62,103 bases of DNA from Anaerolineales bacterium (lineage in GTDB: Bacteria > Chloroflexota > Anaerolineae > Anaerolineales > UBA11858): NCBI GenBank assembly GCA_050049875.1, contig JASFVL010000002.1:1-62103 (forward strand), in the 5' to 3' direction. Both the position numbers and the translations under genes were made by a program. The notes beneath the pieces were generated by a model. It was not told the DNA's origin. It did no database searches and saw nothing but the letters and a program-made list of their open reading frames with translations. Positions 8 through 53,978 of the stretch are shown here, in pieces (position 1 is the stretch's first letter; each line of letters begins with the position of its first letter).

Positions 8-2248
8 GTGGACAACCTCTCCGGCTCTGTTGAGCGCATTACCTACTACAACCCAGAAAACGGGTACAGTGTCGTGCGCCTGCGCCCGGAGGGCGGTGAC
101 ATCCCGCGCCCAATCCAGCATGGTTTGGTGACGGTGGTCGGCAACCTGCCGGAGCTCTCAGCCGGCGAACACTTGAGCTTGCAGGGGAGCTGGGTCAAAC
201 ACGCCAAACACGGCTTGCAGTTCAACGTAGAGATCTGCGAACAAACCCTGCCCGCCACCGTGACGGGCATACGTCGTTACCTGGGTTCCGGTCTGATCAA
301 AGGCATCGGTCCCCGCCTAGCGGAAAACATCGTGGATCACTTCGGTGCGCAGACCCTGGAGGTCATCGAAGAGCACCCCGAACGCCTAAAGGAAGTCGAC
401 AACATCGGTCCTAAGCGCACCCGCAAAATCGCCACCGCTTGGGAGCAACAGAAACAGGTCAAGGAAATCATGCTCTTCCTGCACAGCCACGGCGTGAGCA
501 CCAATCTGGCGATAAAAATCTACAAAACATACGGCGACCAAGCCTTTGAGGTGGTCAAGAGCGATCCTTATCGCTTGGCGCAGGATATCTACGGGGTGGG
601 CTTTAAAACCGCCGACCACCTAGCCCAAGACTTGGGTCTGCCCCCCCACCACCCTTCCCGAATTGAAGCCGGCTTGGTCTATGTGCTCAACGCCATGAGC
701 GATGAAGGTCACGTTTACGCCCCTCAGGACATCCTGAGCGATCGAGCCGCTGAGCTTCTGGATGTCTCGCCCGATCTGATCCCGGAGGCTTTAGAGAGGC
801 TTGCCCGAGAGGACCGCATCCGCTCCGAGCTTTTGCCCATCTTGGGGACGAAAGACGAGGCTCCGCCGGGCGAATCCGGCCTGCTGGAAGTGGCTGAACC
901 CACCGAAACGTACGGCGAACCCGCGGTTTACCTGACCCCCTTCTACTTCGGCGAAGTAAGCGTCGCGGAGCGTCTGCGCCTTCTGAGCAAGAAAGGTTCA
1001 CATCTTAGAGAGCCCTCGACGGCTTCCTTCGAGGAGATCAAGCTCTCATTGGAACAACAATCTGCTATTCAAACCGCCCTATCCCATCCGGTCAGCGTGC
1101 TCACTGGAGGACCGGGTACCGGCAAGACCACCTGTATTCAGCTTCTGATCACCCGGCTAGAATCGAGTTCCAAACACTACGCCTTGGCTTCACCCACAGG
1201 ACGGGCAGCCAAACGCCTCTCGGAAGCCACCGGGCGACCTGCCAGCACGATCCACCGCCTGTTGGGCTACTCCCCCGCTGAAGGTTTCAAGCACAACACC
1301 CGAAATCCCCTGCCTATTGACCTGCTGGTGGTAGATGAGGCCTCCATGCTCGACCTGCTCTTGGCCCATCATCTATTGAAAGCCGTGCCGCCAGAAGCCC
1401 ACCTGCTCCTGGTCGGCGATGTAGACCAGCTCCCCTCCGTGGGCGCGGGCGACGTGTTACGGGATGTGATCGCTAGCGGGATCGCCCCAGTCACCCGTTT
1501 GACGGAGATCTTCCGCCAGGAAGCCGGCTCCGACATCATCACCAACGCGCACCGCATAAACCGGGGAAATATGCCCATCTTCTCCCCAGCCCCCAAAGCA
1601 GGCGACCGGTCGGGCGATTTCTTCCTCTTCCCGGCGGAGGACGCCATCGGTGCTGCTGATTGGATCCTAGATGTGGTTTGCGAGCGTATCCCCCAGACAT
1701 TTAATCTGGAGTCGAAAGCTGATATCCAAGTGCTTGCTCCCATGTACCGCGGTCCGGTGGGTGTCAACGCGCTGAACGAACGACTGCAAGCTGCCCTGAA
1801 CCCCTCGAGCGCCAAAAAGCCGGAGAAAACCCTCTTCGGTCAAACCTTCCGCCGCGGCGATAAGGTCATGCAAACCCAAAATGACTACGACAAAGACGTG
1901 TACAACGGCGATATAGGCTTTGTAAGCGACCTCTCGCTCGTCGAGCACAGCCTATCGGTGACCTTCGACAACCGCCAGGTGTCTTACGACTGGAGCGAGG
2001 CCGACCAGCTCACGCTGGCTTATGCAGTCTCGGTGCACAAAGCCCAGGGATCGGAATTCCCTGCGGTGGTGGCGCCTGTGGTCACACAGCATTACTTGAT
2101 GCTACAGCGCAACCTGCTTTACACCGCAATCACACGCGCCCAGCAACTGTGTGTGCTGGTGGGAAACCGGCGCGCCATTGGCATCGCAGTGCGCAATGAC
2201 CAGGTATCGCGCCGCTACACTGCACTGGATTGGCGCTTGGAGCACTGA
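8..2248 (+). CDS. recD2: SF1B ATP-dependent DNA helicase, RecD2 (RecD/TraA) family
   Basis: 746-aa ORF with GTG start. N-terminal VERITYYNPENGYSVVRL region, Walker A GGPGTGKT, Walker B LLVVDEASM, and helicase motifs VGDVDQLPSVGAG and SVHKAQGSEF. Confidence 0.9.
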   Translation: MDNLSGSVERITYYNPENGYSVVRLRPEGGDIPRPIQHGLVTVVGNLPELSAGEHLSLQGSWVKHAKHGLQFNVEICEQTLPATVTGIRRYLGSGLIKGIGPRLAENIVDHFGAQTLEVIEEHPERLKEVDNIGPKRTRKIATAWEQQKQVKEIMLFLHSHGVSTNLAIKIYKTYGDQAFEVVKSDPYRLAQDIYGVGFKTADHLAQDLGLPPHHPSRIEAGLVYVLNAMSDEGHVYAPQDILSDRAAELLDVSPDLIPEALERLAREDRIRSELLPILGTKDEAPPGESGLLEVAEPTETYGEPAVYLTPFYFGEVSVAERLRLLSKKGSHLREPSTASFEEIKLSLEQQSAIQTALSHPVSVLTGGPGTGKTTCIQLLITRLESSSKHYALASPTGRAAKRLSEATGRPASTIHRLLGYSPAEGFKHNTRNPLPIDLLVVDEASMLDLLLAHHLLKAVPPEAHLLLVGDVDQLPSVGAGDVLRDVIASGIAPVTRLTEIFRQEAGSDIITNAHRINRGNMPIFSPAPKAGDRSGDFFLFPAEDAIGAADWILDVVCERIPQTFNLESKADIQVLAPMYRGPVGVNALNERLQAALNPSSAKKPEKTLFGQTFRRGDKVMQTQNDYDKDVYNGDIGFVSDLSLVEHSLSVTFDNRQVSYDWSEADQLTLAYAVSVHKAQGSEFPAVVAPVVTQHYLMLQRNLLYTAITRAQQLCVLVGNRRAIGIAVRNDQVSRRYTALDWRLEH

Positions 2249-2350
2249 TCCATGGCAGGTTTCTTGCACGAAACGATAACGTCATTCTGAGAAACAAGGC
2301 GAGGAAGAAGCTTAGTTTTTACCAGGAACACAAGTTAAACGTTTAAATGC

Positions 2351-2461
2351 GTGTGCACGCAAGACTTGTCATGAAGAAGAACGTGGGGTGTGTTTTTGGG
2401 CGGCTGAGCCGCCCAAAAACACACCCCACTTAATTCCCTTTGACAACATTTGAGTGCACAC
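2351..2461. mobile_element. MITE-like element, copy A (111 bp), with nested 21-bp-stem hairpin
   Basis: Termini GTGTGCAC...GTGCACAC form an inverted repeat. The element is flanked by an identical 8-bp direct repeat TTAAATGC (2343-2350 and 2462-2469). An internal perfect hairpin lies at 2383-2429. Homologous to 55122-55199 and 11966-12016. Confidence 0.6.
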
Positions 2462-2476
2462 TTAAATGCAAACCAT

Positions 2477-2505
2477 TTGACTATTGCATGGAAAAACTGT
2501 ACACT
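2477..2505 (+). promoter_or_regulatory. Candidate sigma70-type promoter of the FHA gene
   Basis: TTGACT (2477-2482), 17-nt spacer, TACACT (2500-2505). Identified by eye only. Confidence 0.3.
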
Positions 2506-2620
2506 CATAGTACAAATTGGATTATGCAGTGATTTTTGATTAATACCGGGAGAAATCCTGTAATTTAATTAAAAACTGAAACACAAGCACAAACTGTTCT
2601 TGATTCTAAGGAGAATAACC

Positions 2621-3253
2621 ATGGCGTCACAATCCTTCCAACTGGTCACACGGATCGGTCCGACACCAGGGGAGGCCTTCCCGCTGTCTAAGAGTGAGAT
2701 CACCCTCGGGCGTGATGCAAACAACGATATCGTGTTCGATTATGTGGAAGTCTCCCGCCGTCATGCCCGCTTGAGGATGCAAGCTGGCGGCTACGTGTTG
2801 GAAGATCTTGGCTCCACCAACGGCACCTTCGTCAACGAACAGAGACTGATAGGACCGCACTCGCTGCGCCCTGGTGAAACCATCAGTTTGGGGGACGCGG
2901 TGACTTTAATCTACGAAGTCGCCCAATACGACCCCGAGGCAACGGTGGTCTCCACCCCAATCGAAATGCCTCCTCCTCAGAGGCAAGAACAACCTGCTGA
3001 ATCACAACCAAGCAGCTACCCCCAACCCTCCCCTAAGGCACCCGAACCTGCACCTGTTTACTCCGGGCAAGTCCCGGCCGGCCCGACTGCAATTGAGGAG
3101 AAAAAAGGCAGACCCTGGCTGTGGGCCGGGGTGGGATGCGTGGTCGTTCTGCTGTGCGTCGTCGTGGCGGGTGCGTTTATCTTCGACAGCCTCAACCTGT
3201 ACTGCAGCGCCCCCTTCGATCTGCTCTTCAGTTTTCTCTACACCTGTCCATAA
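2621..3253 (+). CDS. FHA domain-containing, membrane-anchored protein
   Basis: Track ORF 2600-3253 trimmed to ATG 2621, which is preceded by AAGGAG (2608-2613). FHA signature ITLGRDANNDIVF..VSRRHARL..LEDLGSTNGTFVN. Pro/Gln-rich linker and a C-terminal TM helix WLWAGVGCVVVLLCVVVAGAFIF. Confidence 0.85.
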   Translation: MASQSFQLVTRIGPTPGEAFPLSKSEITLGRDANNDIVFDYVEVSRRHARLRMQAGGYVLEDLGSTNGTFVNEQRLIGPHSLRPGETISLGDAVTLIYEVAQYDPEATVVSTPIEMPPPQRQEQPAESQPSSYPQPSPKAPEPAPVYSGQVPAGPTAIEEKKGRPWLWAGVGCVVVLLCVVVAGAFIFDSLNLYCSAPFDLLFSFLYTCP

Positions 3254-6319: not shown

Positions 6320-7561
6320 GTGGACTCCAAGACCTTTGAGGTAACCCCGACCACCTTCACCTACGGCGGCGAAGTCCTGGGCCGCTTGTCAGACGGGCGC
6401 GCTGTGTTCGTGCCCTACGCCCTGCCCTCCGAACGCGTGCGGGTGCGATTGGTCGAAGAGAAGCGCGGCTACGCCCGCGCCGAGCTGCTGGAGGTGCTGG
6501 AGAGCTCTCCCGAGCGCATTGAGCCCCGCTGCCGCCATTTCGCCACCTGCGGGGGCTGCCACTACCAGCACATGCCCTACCAAGCGCAGCTTAAAGCCAA
6601 AGCCGAGATCCTGAGCGACCAACTGGAGCGCATTGGCAAGCTAGAAAATCCACCCGTGGAGCCCACCATCCCCTCTCCCCAACCGTGGTACTACCGCAAC
6701 CACATCCAGTTCCACCTCACCGAACAGGGACAGCTCGGTTTCCAGGGCGCCCGCTCCCAAGGAGTGATCCCCATTCAAGAGTGCCACTTGCCCGAAGAGC
6801 CCATCAACGCCATCTGGCCGCTTCTGGATGTTGAACCTATTCCCGGGCTGGAGCGGCTAGGATTACGATCAGGAACGGAGGGGCCTCTTCTGATTCTGGA
6901 AAGTCACGACCCCCAACCGCTGGTGTTCAGCGTCGATCTGCCGGTTTCGGCCGTCCATTTGGGTCCGGGTGGCGCCCTGGTTCTAGCGGGGGATGATTTC
7001 GTCTTCATTGAGGTCCTAGAGCGCTCTTTCCGGGTTTCGGCGGGGTCCTTCTTCCAAGTTAATACGCCGATGGCTGCCGCGCTTGTGGAGTACCTGCTGG
7101 CACACCTTCATCTCACGCCGGATACCTCCCTGATAGAAGGATTCTGCGGCGTCGGGCTGTTCAGCGCCTTCCTGGCTCCCCAAGTGGGAGAGTTAATTGC
7201 GATCGAATCGCACCCCAGCGCAGCGGAGGATTTCGTCGCCAATCTGGACGATTTCGACAACGTAGCGCTCTACGAGGCGCCAGTGGAGGACGTTCTGGGC
7301 ATCTTGAAAGTCCAGCCTGACATCATCCTGGTGGACCCGCCCAGAGCGGGGCTGGGACGCCAGAGCCTGGACGCCATCCTAACTCTAAAGCCTAACCTCG
7401 TGGCTTACGTCTCCTGCGACCCCGCCACCCTAGCCCGGGACGCTAAAAGGCTGACCAAAGGGGGCTACCGCTTGACCCAGGTTACGCCCTTCGATCTCTT
7501 CCCCCAGACATACCATATCGAGAGCGTCAGCTTGTGGGAGAAGAGCGAAGAAAGAGATTAG
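6320..7561 (+). CDS. rlmD: TRAM-domain 23S rRNA (uracil-5)-methyltransferase, RlmD/RumA family
   Basis: 413 aa with GTG start. Fe-S cysteine cluster CRHFATCGGCHYQH, SAM-binding GFCGVGLFS, and C-terminal YVSCDPATLARD with PFDLFPQTYHIESV. Confidence 0.85.
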   Translation: MDSKTFEVTPTTFTYGGEVLGRLSDGRAVFVPYALPSERVRVRLVEEKRGYARAELLEVLESSPERIEPRCRHFATCGGCHYQHMPYQAQLKAKAEILSDQLERIGKLENPPVEPTIPSPQPWYYRNHIQFHLTEQGQLGFQGARSQGVIPIQECHLPEEPINAIWPLLDVEPIPGLERLGLRSGTEGPLLILESHDPQPLVFSVDLPVSAVHLGPGGALVLAGDDFVFIEVLERSFRVSAGSFFQVNTPMAAALVEYLLAHLHLTPDTSLIEGFCGVGLFSAFLAPQVGELIAIESHPSAAEDFVANLDDFDNVALYEAPVEDVLGILKVQPDIILVDPPRAGLGRQSLDAILTLKPNLVAYVSCDPATLARDAKRLTKGGYRLTQVTPFDLFPQTYHIESVSLWEKSEERD

Positions 7562-7571
7562 GTCGTCACCC

Positions 7572-7619
7572 TCATATCCCCCCAACCCCCTTTTCTCCCA
7601 CGTCTAGGAGAAAAGGGGG
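7572..7619. repeat. G/C-rich hairpin repeat (inverted copy at 19352-19398), likely terminator of rlmD
   Basis: TCATATCCCCCCAACCCCCTTTTCTCCCACGTCTAGGAGAAAAGGGGG. The stem pairs CCCCTTTTCTCC with GGAGAAAAGGGG. About 90 percent identical by eye to the reverse complement of 19352-19398. Confidence 0.6.
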
Positions 7620-7649
7620 CGCGACGCAAGCATAACCCGCGAGTGAAAA

Positions 7650-7674
7650 CCCCTCTCCCAGTGTGGGAGAGGGG
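7650..7674. repeat. Perfect 11-bp-stem G/C hairpin
   Basis: CCCCTCTCCCA-GTG-TGGGAGAGGGG. Same style as the hairpins at 33068-33092 and 33111-33135. Confidence 0.6.
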
Positions 7675-7785
7675 TCGCGTAGCACACCCGAAACATCACG
7701 TAGTGAGTGGAGGGTGCTACCGCCACCTCTCAAAAGGGGTGAGGGGATTCCAGAGATCCAACAACCACCAATTCCAAATTAACCC

Positions 7786-7813
7786 TTGACAAACTTAGGT
7801 TTTTGATTAAAAT
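7786..7813 (+). promoter_or_regulatory. Near-consensus sigma70-type promoter
   Basis: TTGACA (7786-7791), 16-nt spacer, TAAAAT (7808-7813), 70 nt upstream of ATG 7884. Confidence 0.6.
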
Positions 7814-7827
7814 AGAACATATGTTCG
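7814..7827. promoter_or_regulatory. Predicted LexA (SOS / Cheo-type) box
   Basis: AGAACATATGTTCG contains a perfect GAAC-N4-GTTC palindrome and matches CGAACATATGTTCG at 13/14 positions. It directly abuts the -10 hexamer, so it would cover the transcription start. Confidence 0.6.
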
Positions 7828-7883
7828 AAATACGTTAATTTCTTGGCACCATCAAAGGAGTTTTTTTAAAGGCTTTTTACAAT

Positions 7884-8726
7884 ATGAAATCTGATCAACA
7901 CCAAATCACGATCTACCAGCAACCTAAAGAGCGCGCAACGCCTGTTCCCTTCGAGATCGCGCCCCAGACTGCACATTGGGAGAGATCCCCCAGGGTACCA
8001 ACACTGCAAACGATCATCGCCCAAACGAAACCCTTACCACCCTACTCGGTTTTGATCGGAGCGTGTGATGATGGTTACCATTTCTTCTTCGATTTAGATG
8101 ACCCTAACCCAGGATCGCTTCTGATCACTGGAGAACCACACACCGGGAAATCCATACTTCTTAGATCGATTATGGAATCAGCTAGCTTGCTGAACCCACC
8201 CAATCAGGTGCGCTTCAGCTTGGTTGCTACACGCCCCCATGAATGGCAAGATGCCTCCGTTTTCCCAAATCTTGACCTCATAGCAGCCCCATACCAGCGT
8301 GAGTCTAACACCTTGGTAATGAAATTTAGCGAAATCGCTAAACAACGACGCAGTGGGCGCTTACGAGGACCCGCGTTGATCTTGTTTATTGAAAACTTGG
8401 CAAGATTCTTGGAACGTATAGATCGGGACGTTGAACTATTCTTGGGTTGGCTGATCCGGGAAGGTCCCAAATCAAAAGTATGGACGGTCGTTACGCTTGA
8501 TATCTTTGAGAGCCCAAAAATCAACAAGAAATTACTCTCTTCTTTCGGCACAAAAATGATCAGCATGACCAGTTTAATTTACACCTTACCCCCTCCAAAT
8601 GGAGGACCTGACTCTTCTCCAAATTTATCAAATGCGCATGGTCAGGTATCGATCTCAGATCCGATGTTCAAAGTCTATTTGAGAGACGAGGGTTGGATTC
8701 GATTTTCAGTTCCTCGATTGGAATAG
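7884..8726 (+). CDS. Stand-alone degenerate FtsK/SpoIIIE/EssC-like P-loop protein (hypothetical)
   Basis: 280 aa. Domain order resembles the FtsK ATPase core: YSVLIGACDDGYHFFFDLDDPNPGSLLITGEPHTGKS (Walker A), then ALILFIENLA where the canonical IDE is IEN, then KSKVWTVVTLD. No TM segment and no gamma domain. The gene is visibly AT-richer than its neighbours. Confidence 0.5.
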   Translation: MKSDQHQITIYQQPKERATPVPFEIAPQTAHWERSPRVPTLQTIIAQTKPLPPYSVLIGACDDGYHFFFDLDDPNPGSLLITGEPHTGKSILLRSIMESASLLNPPNQVRFSLVATRPHEWQDASVFPNLDLIAAPYQRESNTLVMKFSEIAKQRRSGRLRGPALILFIENLARFLERIDRDVELFLGWLIREGPKSKVWTVVTLDIFESPKINKKLLSSFGTKMISMTSLIYTLPPPNGGPDSSPNLSNAHGQVSISDPMFKVYLRDEGWIRFSVPRLE

Positions 8727-8736
8727 GAGAACCCTG

Positions 8737-9009
8737 ATGGACGTAGGTATGTTATGGTTTGACAACGATTCAAAATCTGATCTACCATCCAAAATTACAC
8801 GCGCGGCATCATATTACAACAAGAAATATGGCGTAAAGCCCAACCTTTGTTACGTGAACCCAAAAACGGTCTCAAACGGACACGCCAAGGAGGGCTTTAA
8901 GCAAATTGAGGCCAAATCAGGTGGCATCGAACTGCGAACCACTGAGTTGGTGCTTCCTAACCACTTCTGGATTGGTATTAACGGCAAGAACAACCATCCT
9001 GAAGAGTGA
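8737..9009 (+). CDS. Small hypothetical protein (90 aa), operon partner of the FtsK-like gene
   Basis: ATG 8737 lies 10 nt after the upstream stop and is preceded by AGGAG. Sequence begins MDVGMLWFDNDSKSDLPSKITRAASYYNKKYG. I do not recognise a domain. Confidence 0.55.
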   Translation: MDVGMLWFDNDSKSDLPSKITRAASYYNKKYGVKPNLCYVNPKTVSNGHAKEGFKQIEAKSGGIELRTTELVLPNHFWIGINGKNNHPEE

Positions 9010-9077
9010 AGCACTCGGGTTTTGCCAATTTGACTCCAATGCACGCCCCATGGCGCTATCGGAATCCTGTTTTGGAC

Positions 9078-10238
9078 CTACTTGCAGTAGATCAAGGCCG
9101 CTTGAGCCAGCAGTTTTGCGAGCTGGGAGAGGGATTCTAAATCAACCCATTCCTGATGAGCGTGTGCACCGCCTCCCACCGGTCCGATGACAACTGTTTC
9201 TATCCCAACCCCTGACAACAGCGCCGAATCCATCCAATAAGTCTCCCCAGTATATGGGGGTATGTCACCCAGCACATTTTTAGCAGCAGTCTCTATCACA
9301 TGTACAATTTCCGCATCGGGGGATACTTCAAAAGGTTCACGTACGAAAAATGACTCAACACCTGCTTTAAATTTAGGATCCGCACCCGATAGGCGGTCGA
9401 TGATCGCTTGAATCTCAGCGACCACCTGTTCTTCGCTCTCACTTGGCAGGGTACGACGCTCGATCAGCGCCGTGCAGGCAGCCGCATACATGCTCAGCTC
9501 TGTACCCCCTTGGATTTTAGATACATGCATCGACGGAGGACCGATCAGTGCATGTCTCTCACGGCGGGTCAGCTCCTGTATCAAAGCCTCTAGTTCGAAT
9601 AAAAAACGCCCCATCATAAGGTTAGCGTCAATCCCTTCCTCGAAACGGCTGCCGTGAGCAGCACGCCCCACTGTTTCCACTTCCAACCAGCTAAAACCCT
9701 TATGCGCCAGACAGATCTTCATCTGAGTTGGTTCCGTGACGATGGCACCATCTACTGAATAACGCTGCACCAAGTCAGCAGTGCCAATGCTTTCATACTC
9801 TTCGTCAGCCACCGCCGCGACCAACAGGTCACCGCCCAGTTCCACCCCCTCACCCACTAAGGCCTTGACCGCCGCCATGCAAGCCGCCAAGCTGCCCTTC
9901 ATGTCGTAAGCCCCACGTCCGTACAGCTTGCCTGCTCGAATATGCGGAGAAAATGGAGCTTTCATCCCTTCCACACCGACAGTGTCGGTATGGGCATTCA
10001 GCATCAGCGAACGACCGCCGCCACGCCCTTTCAGCTTACCCACCACGCTGATACGCCCAGGCTGCGGCTCGTGGGTTTCCACCCTTAAACCGAGTTGGCG
10101 CAGGTTATCAGCTACATAATCGGCTATCTCACTCTCACCCGCACCGCCAGTTGAAAGTGAAGGGTTTATCGAATTGATTTTCACCAAATCCGAGAGGGTT
10201 CGCACCAAGTATTGGCTGTCGACGCGCAAATTGTCCAT
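9078..10238 (-). CDS. M20 family metallopeptidase (ArgE/DapE-type deacylase)
   Basis: 386 aa with motifs LNAHTDTV, GRGAYDMKGSLAA, ADEEYES and GGGAHAHQEWV. Confidence 0.85.
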   Translation of the reverse strand: MDNLRVDSQYLVRTLSDLVKINSINPSLSTGGAGESEIADYVADNLRQLGLRVETHEPQPGRISVVGKLKGRGGGRSLMLNAHTDTVGVEGMKAPFSPHIRAGKLYGRGAYDMKGSLAACMAAVKALVGEGVELGGDLLVAAVADEEYESIGTADLVQRYSVDGAIVTEPTQMKICLAHKGFSWLEVETVGRAAHGSRFEEGIDANLMMGRFLFELEALIQELTRRERHALIGPPSMHVSKIQGGTELSMYAAACTALIERRTLPSESEEQVVAEIQAIIDRLSGADPKFKAGVESFFVREPFEVSPDAEIVHVIETAAKNVLGDIPPYTGETYWMDSALLSGVGIETVVIGPVGGGAHAHQEWVDLESLSQLAKLLAQAALIYCK

Positions 10239-51506: not shown

Positions 51507-53978
51507 ATGGAAATAGGAATAGTTCAATCCGTAGACATTGACGATCAAATGCGCTCAGCATACCTGGATTACGCCATGAGCGTGATTGTGTCGCGTGCCC
51601 TGCCGGATTCCCGCGACGGGCTCAAACCGGTCCATAGGCGCATTCTATACGCCATGCACGATATGGGAATCCGCTCCAACAGCAGCTATAAAAAATCCGC
51701 CCGCATCGTTGGCGAAGTGTTGGGGAAATATCATCCCCACGGCGATAGCGCGGTGTACGACGCCATGGCACGGATGGCTCAAAGCTTTTCCATGCGCTAC
51801 CCTCTGGTGGATGGACAGGGCAACTTCGGCTCCATCGATGGCGATTCCCCCGCGGCCATGCGTTACACCGAAGCCCGTATGGGGCGTATGGCTGAAGAGA
51901 TGCTCACCGATATCGAAAAGGAAACCGTTGACTTTGTAGATAACTTCGACGGTTCGCTGGAAGAGCCTGATGTCCTGCCCGCCCGCTTGCCCAACCTGCT
52001 GCTCAATGGTTCATCGGGCATCGCGGTGGGTATGGCTACCAATATCCCGCCGCACAACTTGAGAGAGTTGGTCAAGGCCCTCACCTACCTGATCGATCAC
52101 TATGACAACATGGATGAGGTCACCATCGAGGATTTGTTGGAGTTCATTCCCGGTCCCGACTTTCCCACGGGAGGGGTGATTGTGGGGGATGAAGGCATTC
52201 GCCAAGCCTACAGTACCGGGCGTGGGCGCATCATTTTGCGGGGTATGGCGGTCATCGAGGAGATGTCGGGCGGGCGCTACCGCATCGTGATCACCGAGAT
52301 CCCCTTCCAGCTCAACAAGACCACCCTTATTGAACGCATCGCTGATCTTTACCGCAGCGGCAGGATCAATAGCATTTCCGACATGCGCGACGAGTCTGAC
52401 CGGCGGGGCATGAGCATTGTGGTCGAACTCAAGCGCACTGCGCAGCCCCGCAAGGTGCTCAACCAGCTCTATAAATACACACCGTTGCAATCCACGTTTG
52501 GTGCTCAGGTATTAGCCCTGGTCGATGGTAAGCCGCGTTTGCTGCCTTTGAAGCGCGCCTTACAGATATATATCGAGCACCGTTTGGAGGTGCTCACCCG
52601 CCGCACCCAGTTCGAGCTGGATAAAGCCCGCCACCGCGCCCACATCTTGGAGGGGTTGCTCATCGCTTTGGCGAATTTGGACGATGTAATTCAGACCATT
52701 CGACAATCTCCGGACGCGGAGGTGGCTCGCCAGAGTTTAATCAGCCGTTTTGAGCTCACCGAGGTACAGGCTCGGGCTATCTTGGATATGCAGTTGCGCA
52801 GGCTGGCTGCTTTGGAGCGTCAAAAGATTGAAGATGAGCATAGCGATCTGCTCGAACGGATCGCTTATCTGGATGACTTGTTAGCTCATCCCAAGAAGCT
52901 GCTGGTTTTGATCAAAGAAGACCTGCAGGATGTGGCTGATAAGTACGGTGACGAACGCCGCACCCGCATTGCCCCCGACGCCAGCAGTGATCTGCGTGAT
53001 GAGGACCTAGTCGCCGACGAGTCCGTGCTCATCAGCATAACCGAGCGCGGATATATCAAGCGCGTCTCAGCGAAGACCTATCGCTCCCAAAGGCGGGGAG
53101 GACGTGGTGTTAAGGGGCATACCACGCGCGACGAAGACGAAGTCCTCATGCTGCTCCCAGCCCGCACGCTGGACACGATTCTCTTTTTCTCCGATCGCGG
53201 CAAAGTCTACTCCGAGAAGACTTACCAGATTCCCGATGCTGGGCGCACGGCGCGCGGCATTCCCATTGTCAATGTGCTTGCCATCGATCCAGGGGAAACA
53301 ATCACCGCGGCTGTGACTGTGCCCGATTTCGATGCGGCTGAGTACTGCACGATGGTCACCCGCCACGGGCGTGTTAAGCGCGTCGGTCTCTCGGAGTTTG
53401 CCTCCGTGCGTCCCTCCGGTCTGATTGCCATTAGCCTGGACGAAAATGATGAGTTGGGGTGGGTGCGACCGACGCGTGGTTCGGATGAGATTATCATCGT
53501 CACTAAGCTCGGTAAAGCCCTGCGTTTCTCCGAAAAAGAAGTCCGCCCTGTAGGAAGAACAGCCAAAGGGGTAATCGGGATTCGGCTTCAGAAGCGTGAT
53601 GAAGTCATCGGTATGGAGGTGATAGAACCGGGAGGGGATTTGCTGGTGGTCACAACCAAAGGTTACGGTAAACGCACCCCCTTGAGCGAGTACGCCGCCA
53701 AGAGTCGCGCTACGCTGGGTGTCTTGACGACGGTTCGTAAAGCGCTTCCCAAGATCGGCACCATCGCCTTGGCTCGGGTTGTGCAGCCGGAGGAAGATCT
53801 CATCACCTTAATCTCATCTAACGGCATTGTGCTGCGCACTAAGGCGGATGCGATCACTCAGACGGGTCGGGCTACTCGCGGTGTGCGGGTGATGGATCTA
53901 AAAGAGGGGGACACGGTCGCTTCCTTAGCTCGAATTGCTGCGGCTGATTTGCGGCGAGTAGGAGCAGCGAACGATTGA
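51507..53978 (+). CDS. gyrA: DNA gyrase subunit A
   Basis: 823 aa. Begins [32 protein letters not shown], active-site region [10 protein letters not shown], and a C-terminal beta-pinwheel repeat region. Confidence 0.95.

Follow-up and report, generated by a model that had tools for sequence, protein, structure and literature searches.

In all likelihood under LexA control, to judge by its promoter and by those of its relatives, a two-gene operon lies at positions 7,786 to 9,009 of the stretch of DNA analyzed here (the window: 62,103 nucleotides of contig JASFVL010000002.1, from an Anaerolineales bacterium of the phylum Chloroflexota). The first gene of the operon (gene 1) encodes a degenerate FtsK-like protein of 280 amino acids (aa) and the second (gene 2) a basic protein of 90 aa; the two are very probably switched on by DNA damage, and together they are read as a lineage-specific SOS effector module. 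LexA control had already been predicted in a first-pass annotation made from the letters alone, and the prediction gains support from an operator that is kept in ~100 orthologous promoters and from the presence of lexA in the same operon in relatives. That annotation had also cast the 90-aa protein as a partner of the FtsK-like protein; here the emphasis has to be reversed: the part of the operon that stays constant and conserved is gene 2, which stands alone in 47 of the 83 loci analyzed, and the FtsK-like protein is an optional addition on its way to being lost.

The promoter in the window (Table 1) matches the sigma-70 consensus at 11 of 12 positions in a consensus scan, and its −10 hexamer runs without a gap into the predicted operator, AGAACATATGTTCG; the coordinates and sequences first reported for this near-consensus promoter abutting an operator are confirmed. 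The operator agrees with the Gram-positive LexA box CGAACATATGTTCG at 13 of 14 positions, a level reached in none of 100 shuffles. The palindrome had been put forward, in addition, as the only one of its kind between genes; a single GAAC-N4-GTTC core is indeed present in the window, yet 0.95 are expected by chance and at least one occurs in 65 of 100 shuffles, so that the bare core alone, with about one chance occurrence expected per window, proves nothing. When scored with a 20-nucleotide (nt) LexA matrix trained on 76 orthologous sites (training median 25.9 bits), the window operator reaches 27.7 bits, and the runner-up in the 62 kb reaches 11.4 bits; this runner-up (ACAAGAACATCGGTTTTAAA; Table 1) lies inside a minus-strand open reading frame (ORF) of 419 aa and is probably non-functional. 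The GAAC-N4-GTTC motif is the Cheo box (PMC2248561), and the Firmicutes or Gram-positive LexA consensus TACGAACATATGTTCGTA is the same motif (PMC2248561, PMC3323433).

Conservation of the operator was evaluated in the 83 gene 2 loci, among which the window is counted and a few are redundant. A site of at least 12 bits is found at the operon promoter in 31 of the 36 loci with gene 1 and in 44 of the 47 loci without it, and the exceptions fall mostly at contig edges. Two loci, L029 and L063, have the site ~600 nt upstream, ahead of a different intervening gene, and another, L031, has one directly ahead of an extended gene 1. All 106 sites of 15 bits or more in 602 kb of gene 2 loci fall at the operon promoter. 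The orthologous promoter itself is conserved as ccTTGACA, 16–18 nt, TATAAT, with two fixed operator positions: site A, in the spacer between the −35 and −10 hexamers, and site B, 1–7 nt past the −10 hexamer; the two occur together in about one third of the loci. The window operator occupies site B. Its promoter spacer also holds the imperfect palindrome AAAC-TTAG-GTTT (7791–7802), just where many orthologues have site A; the matrix score of this segment as a second operator is below zero, so the window has one site only, and the segment resembles a decayed operator.

The decisive link to LexA comes from relatives in which lexA heads the homologous operon behind the same promoter design. In these metagenome loci of a sister lineage (other Chloroflexota; L122/L124, L127 and L174) the order is box, lexA, FtsK-like gene, (DinB_2-like gene), gene 2, and the promoter of L122 reads TTGACA-17-TATACT-AGAACAAAGGTTCG, the design seen in the window. 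The encoded repressor has the Pfam domains LexA_DNA_bind and Peptidase_S24 and matches E. coli LexA at 7e-30. In two other loci (L131, L130) a glyoxalase/bleomycin-resistance-like gene holds the first operon position. Two further arrangements were observed at operators of this family. In L085 recO (2070–2798, minus strand) is divergent from the adjoining operon, and both LexA boxes therefore sit in the intergenic region shared by recO and gene 1. In the metagenome-assembled genome (MAG) MFD00709.bin.2.142 two copies of gene 2 (L050 and L051) occur on separate contigs, each with a LexA box at −111, reflecting either a duplication or assembled strain variants.

Gene 2 begins 10 nt past the stop codon of gene 1; among orthologues the spacing ranges from −4 to about +90 nt and is often 10–28 nt or an overlap. 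The length of 90 aa, the 10-nt gap and the AGGAG ribosome-binding site described in the first-pass annotation all stand, and the N-terminus does not, since it had been quoted from residue 5; the protein in fact begins MDVGMLWFDND. Invariant in the family are M1, G4, MLWFDND (5–11), Y26, Y27, K30, Y31, P35, C38, P74, H76, W78, I79 and G80, and most of these residues recur in the sister subfamily described below. The proteins of the family are basic (median isoelectric point, pI, 9.2) and lack transmembrane (TM) segments; for the window protein the maximum Kyte-Doolittle 19-residue mean is 0.47. Homologues are found in at least 542 species genomes, of which the best 80 are all from Anaerolineae or other Chloroflexota; carriers include Anaerolinea thermophila, Longilinea arvoryzae, Levilinea and Bellilinea. 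In an exhaustive profile search the family comprises 2048 clusters at 50% identity, nearly all of them stand-alone proteins of 70–115 aa, and public records label its members hypothetical. AlphaFold2 (AF2) models the protein (predicted local distance difference test, pLDDT, 73) as a small alpha/beta unit whose central loop is disordered. No match to the family was found in Pfam, NCBIfam (E up to 1), PHROGs, PADLOC or by sequence profile in the PDB. Foldseek searches with the model returned, as best PDB hits, fragments of HK97-type capsid protein (E 0.05), judged meaningless, and in BFVD an unnamed 78-aa viral protein (7e-4), which is uninformative.

Gene 1, by comparison of the 83 loci, is present in 36 and absent from 47, and its distribution tracks clades, with a nearest-neighbour agreement of 0.85 vs 0.51 by chance. 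The gene pair had been expected to be co-conserved, and this holds in one direction only: gene 1 is always accompanied by gene 2, and gene 2 occurs without gene 1 in the 47 loci. Four independently ascertained gene 1 homologues gave the same result: in 6 of 6 places a box precedes gene 1 and gene 2 comes directly after it. The family evolves fast (23–40% identity), and gene 1 diverges faster than gene 2, both on one contig (52% vs 75% identity) and in the family alignments.

The window gene 1 protein scores 24.9 bits with the Pfam family FtsK_SpoIIIE (PF01580), just over the cut-off of 24, and the match spans aa 74–115 (the P-loop region) only; 19 of 28 gene 1 orthologues match the same family, at best with 7e-13. 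A profile of these 28 orthologues compared with the PDB finds EccC5 (5.8e-20), T. curvata EccC (4.6e-18) and FtsK (1.4e-6). In the AF2 model (mean pLDDT 76.6, core mostly >90) residues 1–35 are predicted to be disordered and the protein stops after the beta core; Foldseek matches this model to EccCb1-D2 (4e-12) and to EssC and the FtsK motor (~1e-9), with further structural matches to the D2-D3 domains of EccC/EssC and to TcpA. The FtsK-like fold, proposed at first from the linear order of motifs, is thus recovered by both profile and structure. The size of the protein, its Walker A motif, its degenerate 'EN' in the Walker B position and the lack of a TM segment and a gamma domain were likewise all as first described: the maximum Kyte-Doolittle 19-residue mean is 1.05, a Pfam scan gives no match to FtsK_alpha or to a gamma domain, and the Walker B position reads IEN (LFIEN) where the family has IDD, both without the catalytic glutamate. 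Walker A, intact in the window copy, is less constant in the family: GK[ST] is kept in 15 of 28 orthologues and the lysine is lost in 11 of 28.

The gene 1 relatives linked to lexA are longer (353–361 aa, with 69–84% mutual identity) and contain both FtsK_alpha and FtsK_SpoIIIE domains with GSGKT and VDEL motifs; they too have neither a TM segment nor a gamma domain. Alignment by hhalign joins the gene 1 family to these lexA-linked FtsK-like proteins (probability 99.8, E 1.2e-27, 236 columns), and on this basis the window gene 1 is read from its sequence as the decayed beta-domain remnant of a soluble, SOS-controlled FtsK-like alpha+beta motor.

Several variants of gene 1 were noted. In two Anaerolineae loci (L029, 3334–3939; L063, 3457–3960) a protein of 167–201 aa with weak likeness to DUF3052 (E ~0.02–0.05) replaces gene 1 between box and gene 2. 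Longer gene 1 variants were checked for extra domains (L031, L056), and the extension in L031 proved to be proline-rich low-complexity sequence only. In L004/L079 (3098–3996), from a long-read MAG, two overlapping ORFs (128 and 182 aa) stand in for an unbroken gene 1, which reflects either a frameshift error or a pseudogene. A subset of orthologues has an N-terminal motif, h-G-h-K-x-L-E-R-L-K-P, before the disordered linker; the window protein does not have it.

What gene 2 may do is suggested by its divergent relatives. Two of these (P0231, P0267) lie between mraY and murD, in the cluster of genes for division and the cell wall (dcw), and a metagenome scan seeded with this dcw-type subfamily gave 80 loci, 49 of them with the subfamily gene flanked by mraY and murD and none of these 49 with a LexA box. 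In 15 of the 80 it follows a gene 1 homologue, and in 7 it follows a membrane protein behind a LexA box. The full order in L106, by Pfam, is ftsI-murE/F-mraY-X-murD-ftsW-murG, and this full order was confirmed by Pfam also in L096 and L091. Members of the dcw type likewise come from Chloroflexota. The context types form separate sequence groups; all have a high guanine-plus-cytosine (GC) content and come from the same samples, a pattern that would fit paralogy without establishing it. The window gene 2 itself lies outside the dcw cluster, between an rlmD-like gene and an M20 peptidase gene and holA.

Additional contexts of the gene 2 family were observed. The dcw-type member P0231 (L091, 2143–2715) has a C-terminal tail of ~110 aa that is rich in lysine, alanine and proline and is histone H1-like; other long members have low-complexity tails or loops. 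In another Chloroflexota lineage (L144, 3098–3991; also L140, L142, L143, L145, L146 and L150) a LexA box comes first, then a multi-TM protein of 297 aa that has a proline-rich tail and matches nothing in Pfam, and then gene 2; in L144 an SLT lytic transglycosylase is next. Distant homologues (L092/L093, 3001–3423; L095, 2418–2717) occur in runs of small same-strand genes, one run with a ParM/Alp-like actin and the other with an FtsK_SpoIIIE protein of 490 aa besides a ParA/MipZ-like ATPase. In L092/L093 a LexA box was looked for and not found.

The operon is chromosomal and vertically inherited. In dozens of species the synteny is conserved as rlmD-like gene, [gene 1], gene 2, followed by convergent holA and a DUF6391 gene, and collections of phages and plasmids gave no match to the module. 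The unit had been judged AT-rich by eye, and the count agrees, with a GC content of 47.0% in gene 1 and 44.7% in gene 2 vs 56.9% in the flanks. In 90% of loci gene 2 is low in GC, and because the synteny is conserved the AT-richness is no mark of a foreign island. The M20-family peptidase gene between gene 2 and holA, also present on the contig of the closest relative, looks like a local insertion, since in many relatives gene 2 is directly convergent with holA-DUF6391. The rest of the window is ordinary core chromosome: a RecD2-type helicase (OB_YrrC, HHH_RecD2, AAA_30 and SH3_13 domains) and a forkhead-associated (FHA) domain protein are encoded 5–8 kb upstream of the operon, and GyrA is encoded farther along. 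No intrinsic terminator was found after gene 2, and no Rfam family in positions 7400–9200. Two perfect GC-rich hairpins, one with 13-nt arms and an 8-nt loop and the other with 12-nt arms and a 3-nt loop, separate the rlmD-like gene from the promoter; neither has a T-run after it, the second (7649–7675) is unique in the window, and the pair may serve to terminate the upstream gene or may be some other structured element.

Table 1. Features of the predicted LexA-controlled operon and of its surroundings (positions are those of the window).
Feature	Position	Strand	Remarks
−35 hexamer TTGACA	7786–7791	+	ccTTGACA kept in most orthologous promoters
−10 hexamer TAAAAT	7808–7813	+	16-nt spacer to −35
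Predicted LexA operator AGAACATATGTTCG (site B)	7814–7827	.	no gap to −10; expected transcription start covered
Gene 1	7884–8726	+	280 aa; soluble degenerate FtsK/EccC-like P-loop protein, beta/RecA-like core only
Walker A GEPHTGKS	8130–8153	+	aa 83–90 of gene 1; intact in window copy
Walker B-like strand LILFIENL	8376–8399	+	aa 165–172 of gene 1; family consensus hhhIDD
Shine-Dalgarno AGGAG of gene 2	8725–8729	+	overlaps gene 1 stop TAG (8724–8726)
Gene 2	8737–9009	+	90 aa, basic, soluble; motif MxxGMLWFDND ... YYxxKYG ... C ... LPxHFWIG
RecD2-type helicase gene	8–2248		upstream of operon
FHA-domain protein gene	2600–3253		upstream of operon
GC-rich hairpin	7586–7619		between rlmD-like gene and promoter
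GC-rich hairpin	7649–7675		between rlmD-like gene and promoter
M20-family peptidase gene	9078–10238	−	between gene 2 and holA
Runner-up matrix site ACAAGAACATCGGTTTTAAA	24728–24747		11.4 bits
GyrA gene	51507–53978		

A mechanism can be proposed in which a LexA-repressed effector acts on the division or cell-wall machinery, with an FtsK-derived protein as optional partner; taken as a whole, this reading is moderately favored. The regulation is well supported, and the biochemical function is what we infer. In undamaged cells a LexA dimer on AGAACATATGTTCG would block RNA polymerase, because the site directly adjoins the −10 hexamer and spans the start of transcription, and upon DNA damage the RecA-stimulated self-cleavage of LexA would allow both genes to be transcribed. 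The effector would be the 90-aa basic, cytoplasmic gene 2 protein, which may act on the septal or peptidoglycan-precursor machinery because its closest subfamily in other Chloroflexota is fixed in the dcw cluster. After damage it would tie division to chromosome status, most likely in the direction of a division delay or a checkpoint. The gene 1 protein, which keeps Walker A and has lost the catalytic glutamate, alpha domain, gamma domain and membrane anchor, would most likely have no motor function and serve as a binding partner or modulator that about half of the lineage can do without; the ancestral state, in other Chloroflexota, would be an intact soluble FtsK motor co-transcribed with lexA and gene 2. 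For the separate parts of this proposal the strength differs. By analogy with its dcw relatives, the chances that gene 2 has a division or cell-wall role are judged to be about even, and specific inhibition of division by gene 2 is possible but doubtful. Equally tentative is a wider version, in which the gene 2 family would be a Chloroflexota-wide division or cell-wall component with a housekeeping copy between mraY and murD and a LexA-controlled copy serving as SOS checkpoint, the latter once teamed with a lexA-co-transcribed FtsK motor that Anaerolineae are now losing.

Several observations weigh against this proposal. With E. coli LexA as query, no lexA was found among all ORFs of the window and the first 84 loci, the gene being encountered in the metagenome loci alone, and no recA, uvrA or lexA gene is present in the 62-kb window. 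The dcw link is guilt by association, as it comes from a sister subfamily in genomes other than that of the window, and a pure inhibitor would hardly be expected to be expressed constitutively alongside essential dcw genes. Gene 2 has no recognizable fold relative, as judged from a model of only moderate quality, and some of the distant gene 2 contexts look like mobile elements.

The main alternative accepts SOS induction and places the module at the DNA: gene 2 would be a DNA- or nucleoid-associated protein or a small modulator of RecA or LexA, in a role like that of DinI, RecX or YebG, and its FtsK-like partner would act on DNA, for example in chromosome clearing or in dimer resolution after recombinational repair, so that neither would regulate division or the cell wall. 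The basic character of the gene 2 proteins and the long lysine/alanine-rich, histone H1-like tail of P0231 speak for such a role, as do the intact gene 1 relatives, which are true FtsK alpha+beta motors, the DinB_2-like and bleomycin-resistance-like operon neighbours in relatives, and the SOS induction of E. coli ftsK from the dinH promoter (PMC4080785). However, gene 2 matches neither DinI nor RecX nor any DNA-binding fold in sequence or structure, the strongest context signal of its family is the mraY-X-murD position, and most Anaerolineae have a degenerate motor or none; a DNA- or RecA-centred role is accordingly considered unlikely, if less so than any of the readings that follow. A toxin-antitoxin-like pair under SOS control would account for two small adjacent genes, for tight repression and for the double operators of many species, and several E. 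coli toxin-antitoxin modules are LexA-regulated; such a pair is nevertheless hard to reconcile with a gene 2 that is alone in 47 of 83 loci and has a sister subfamily in the dcw cluster, and neither protein matches a known toxin or antitoxin family, which leaves this reading with a minimal probability.

The surroundings and the relatives of gene 1 bear on two further readings. In the first, the unit would be an island gained by horizontal transfer or an anti-phage module, with gene 1 as a mad8- or SspH-type FtsK-like ATPase, and its AT-richness would be explained. The PADLOC mad8 model does match the window protein (1.6e-9) and 16 of 28 orthologues, with SspH matching 11 of the 28; the unit lies 10–12 GC points under its flanks, and distant gene 2 relatives stand beside ParM- or ParA-like genes and an FtsK-like gene. 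Yet only the ATPase models match and no other gene of a MADS or Ssp system is present in the neighbourhood, the chromosomal synteny is identical in dozens of species, phage and plasmid collections hold nothing similar, gene 1 presence follows phylogeny, and low GC is a general trait of gene 2, all of which makes a defence island very improbable. A type VII secretion-like pair, composed of an EccC/EssC-type ATPase domain and a small substrate of ~90 aa, is suggested by the best PDB matches of gene 1 in both sequence and structure, which are EccC/EssC D2-D3 domains, and by the small gene adjoining it; but gene 1 consists of one domain and lacks TM segments, its intact relatives have an FtsK_alpha domain and FtsK motifs, gene 2 is predicted to be alpha/beta and not a helical hairpin and has no WXG100 match, and the neighbours (rlmD-like gene, M20 peptidase, holA) include no other type VII secretion gene, so that this pair is less probable still. 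Finally, the palindrome could have arisen by chance or could serve some regulator besides LexA, in which case the operon would not be damage-inducible. The bare core, expected about once per window, would allow this, whereas the extended site is reached in no shuffle, its positional conservation over ~100 loci is essentially complete, the same site is present at the lexA promoter in relatives, and the motif is that of the Cheo box and of the Firmicutes consensus (PMC2248561, PMC3323433); coincidence or another regulator is thus scarcely to be credited.

Compared with known systems, the module with its LexA-repressed effector most resembles the Gram-positive LexA (Cheo/SOS) regulon in its control: the palindrome is that of the consensus CGAACRNRYGTTYC, matched by the window site at 13 of 14 positions, the operator overlaps the core promoter and occurs as single or double operators (PMC2248561, PMC3323433), and in relatives lexA is autoregulated from the same design. 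Unlike in known SOS regulons, the controlled genes come from families that are found in none of them in the searchable literature. As with E. coli ftsK at dinH, an FtsK-family protein is placed under LexA, tying segregation and division to damage (PMC4080785); unlike E. coli FtsK, gene 1 is soluble, without the N-terminal membrane domain, linker and gamma domain, and in the window also without the alpha domain and the catalytic glutamate, and it is not a housekeeping FtsK and is paired with a small protein. Its best matches, the D2 and D3 domains of EccC/EssC, are similarly FtsK-like RecA cores with weakened catalytic motifs that serve regulation or binding and not a motor, but gene 1 is a stand-alone single domain with no membrane anchor and no type VII secretion context, and its intact relatives resemble FtsK alpha+beta proteins. 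Gene 2, like SulA, YneA, ChiZ, DivS, SidA and SosA, is small, lineage-restricted and under predicted tight LexA control. The genes yneA, chiZ, divS and sosA are adjacent to lexA, and gene 2 is like them in sharing an operon with lexA in relatives. It differs from SulA, YneA and the other SOS division inhibitors in having no sequence or fold similarity to them, no TM segment and no LysM domain, and in having a sister subfamily that is encoded constitutively within the dcw cluster. The searchable literature holds no description of the module, of an SOS regulon in Anaerolineae, of an SOS-controlled soluble FtsK or of the small gene between mraY and murD, in agreement with the initial suggestion that the module is of a type not described so far.

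Every well-studied bacterial lineage has its own SOS-induced way to hold back division, but to our knowledge no such mechanism has been described for the Chloroflexota, filamentous bacteria whose envelope is atypical and which make up a large, mostly uncultured phylum. Gene 2 offers a concrete, testable candidate for the link between division and DNA damage in this phylum, because its relatives sit in the cell-division gene cluster; were this true, the division checkpoint would be built from a paralogue of a core dcw protein and not from an unrelated inhibitor. An unannotated family of small proteins, with at least 2048 clusters, is thereby tied to LexA by its regulation and to mraY and murD by gene order. 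The history read from gene 1, in which an FtsK motor would have been recruited into the lexA operon and would then have decayed to a pseudo-ATPase, would be a clear case of SOS regulons gaining and shedding parts.

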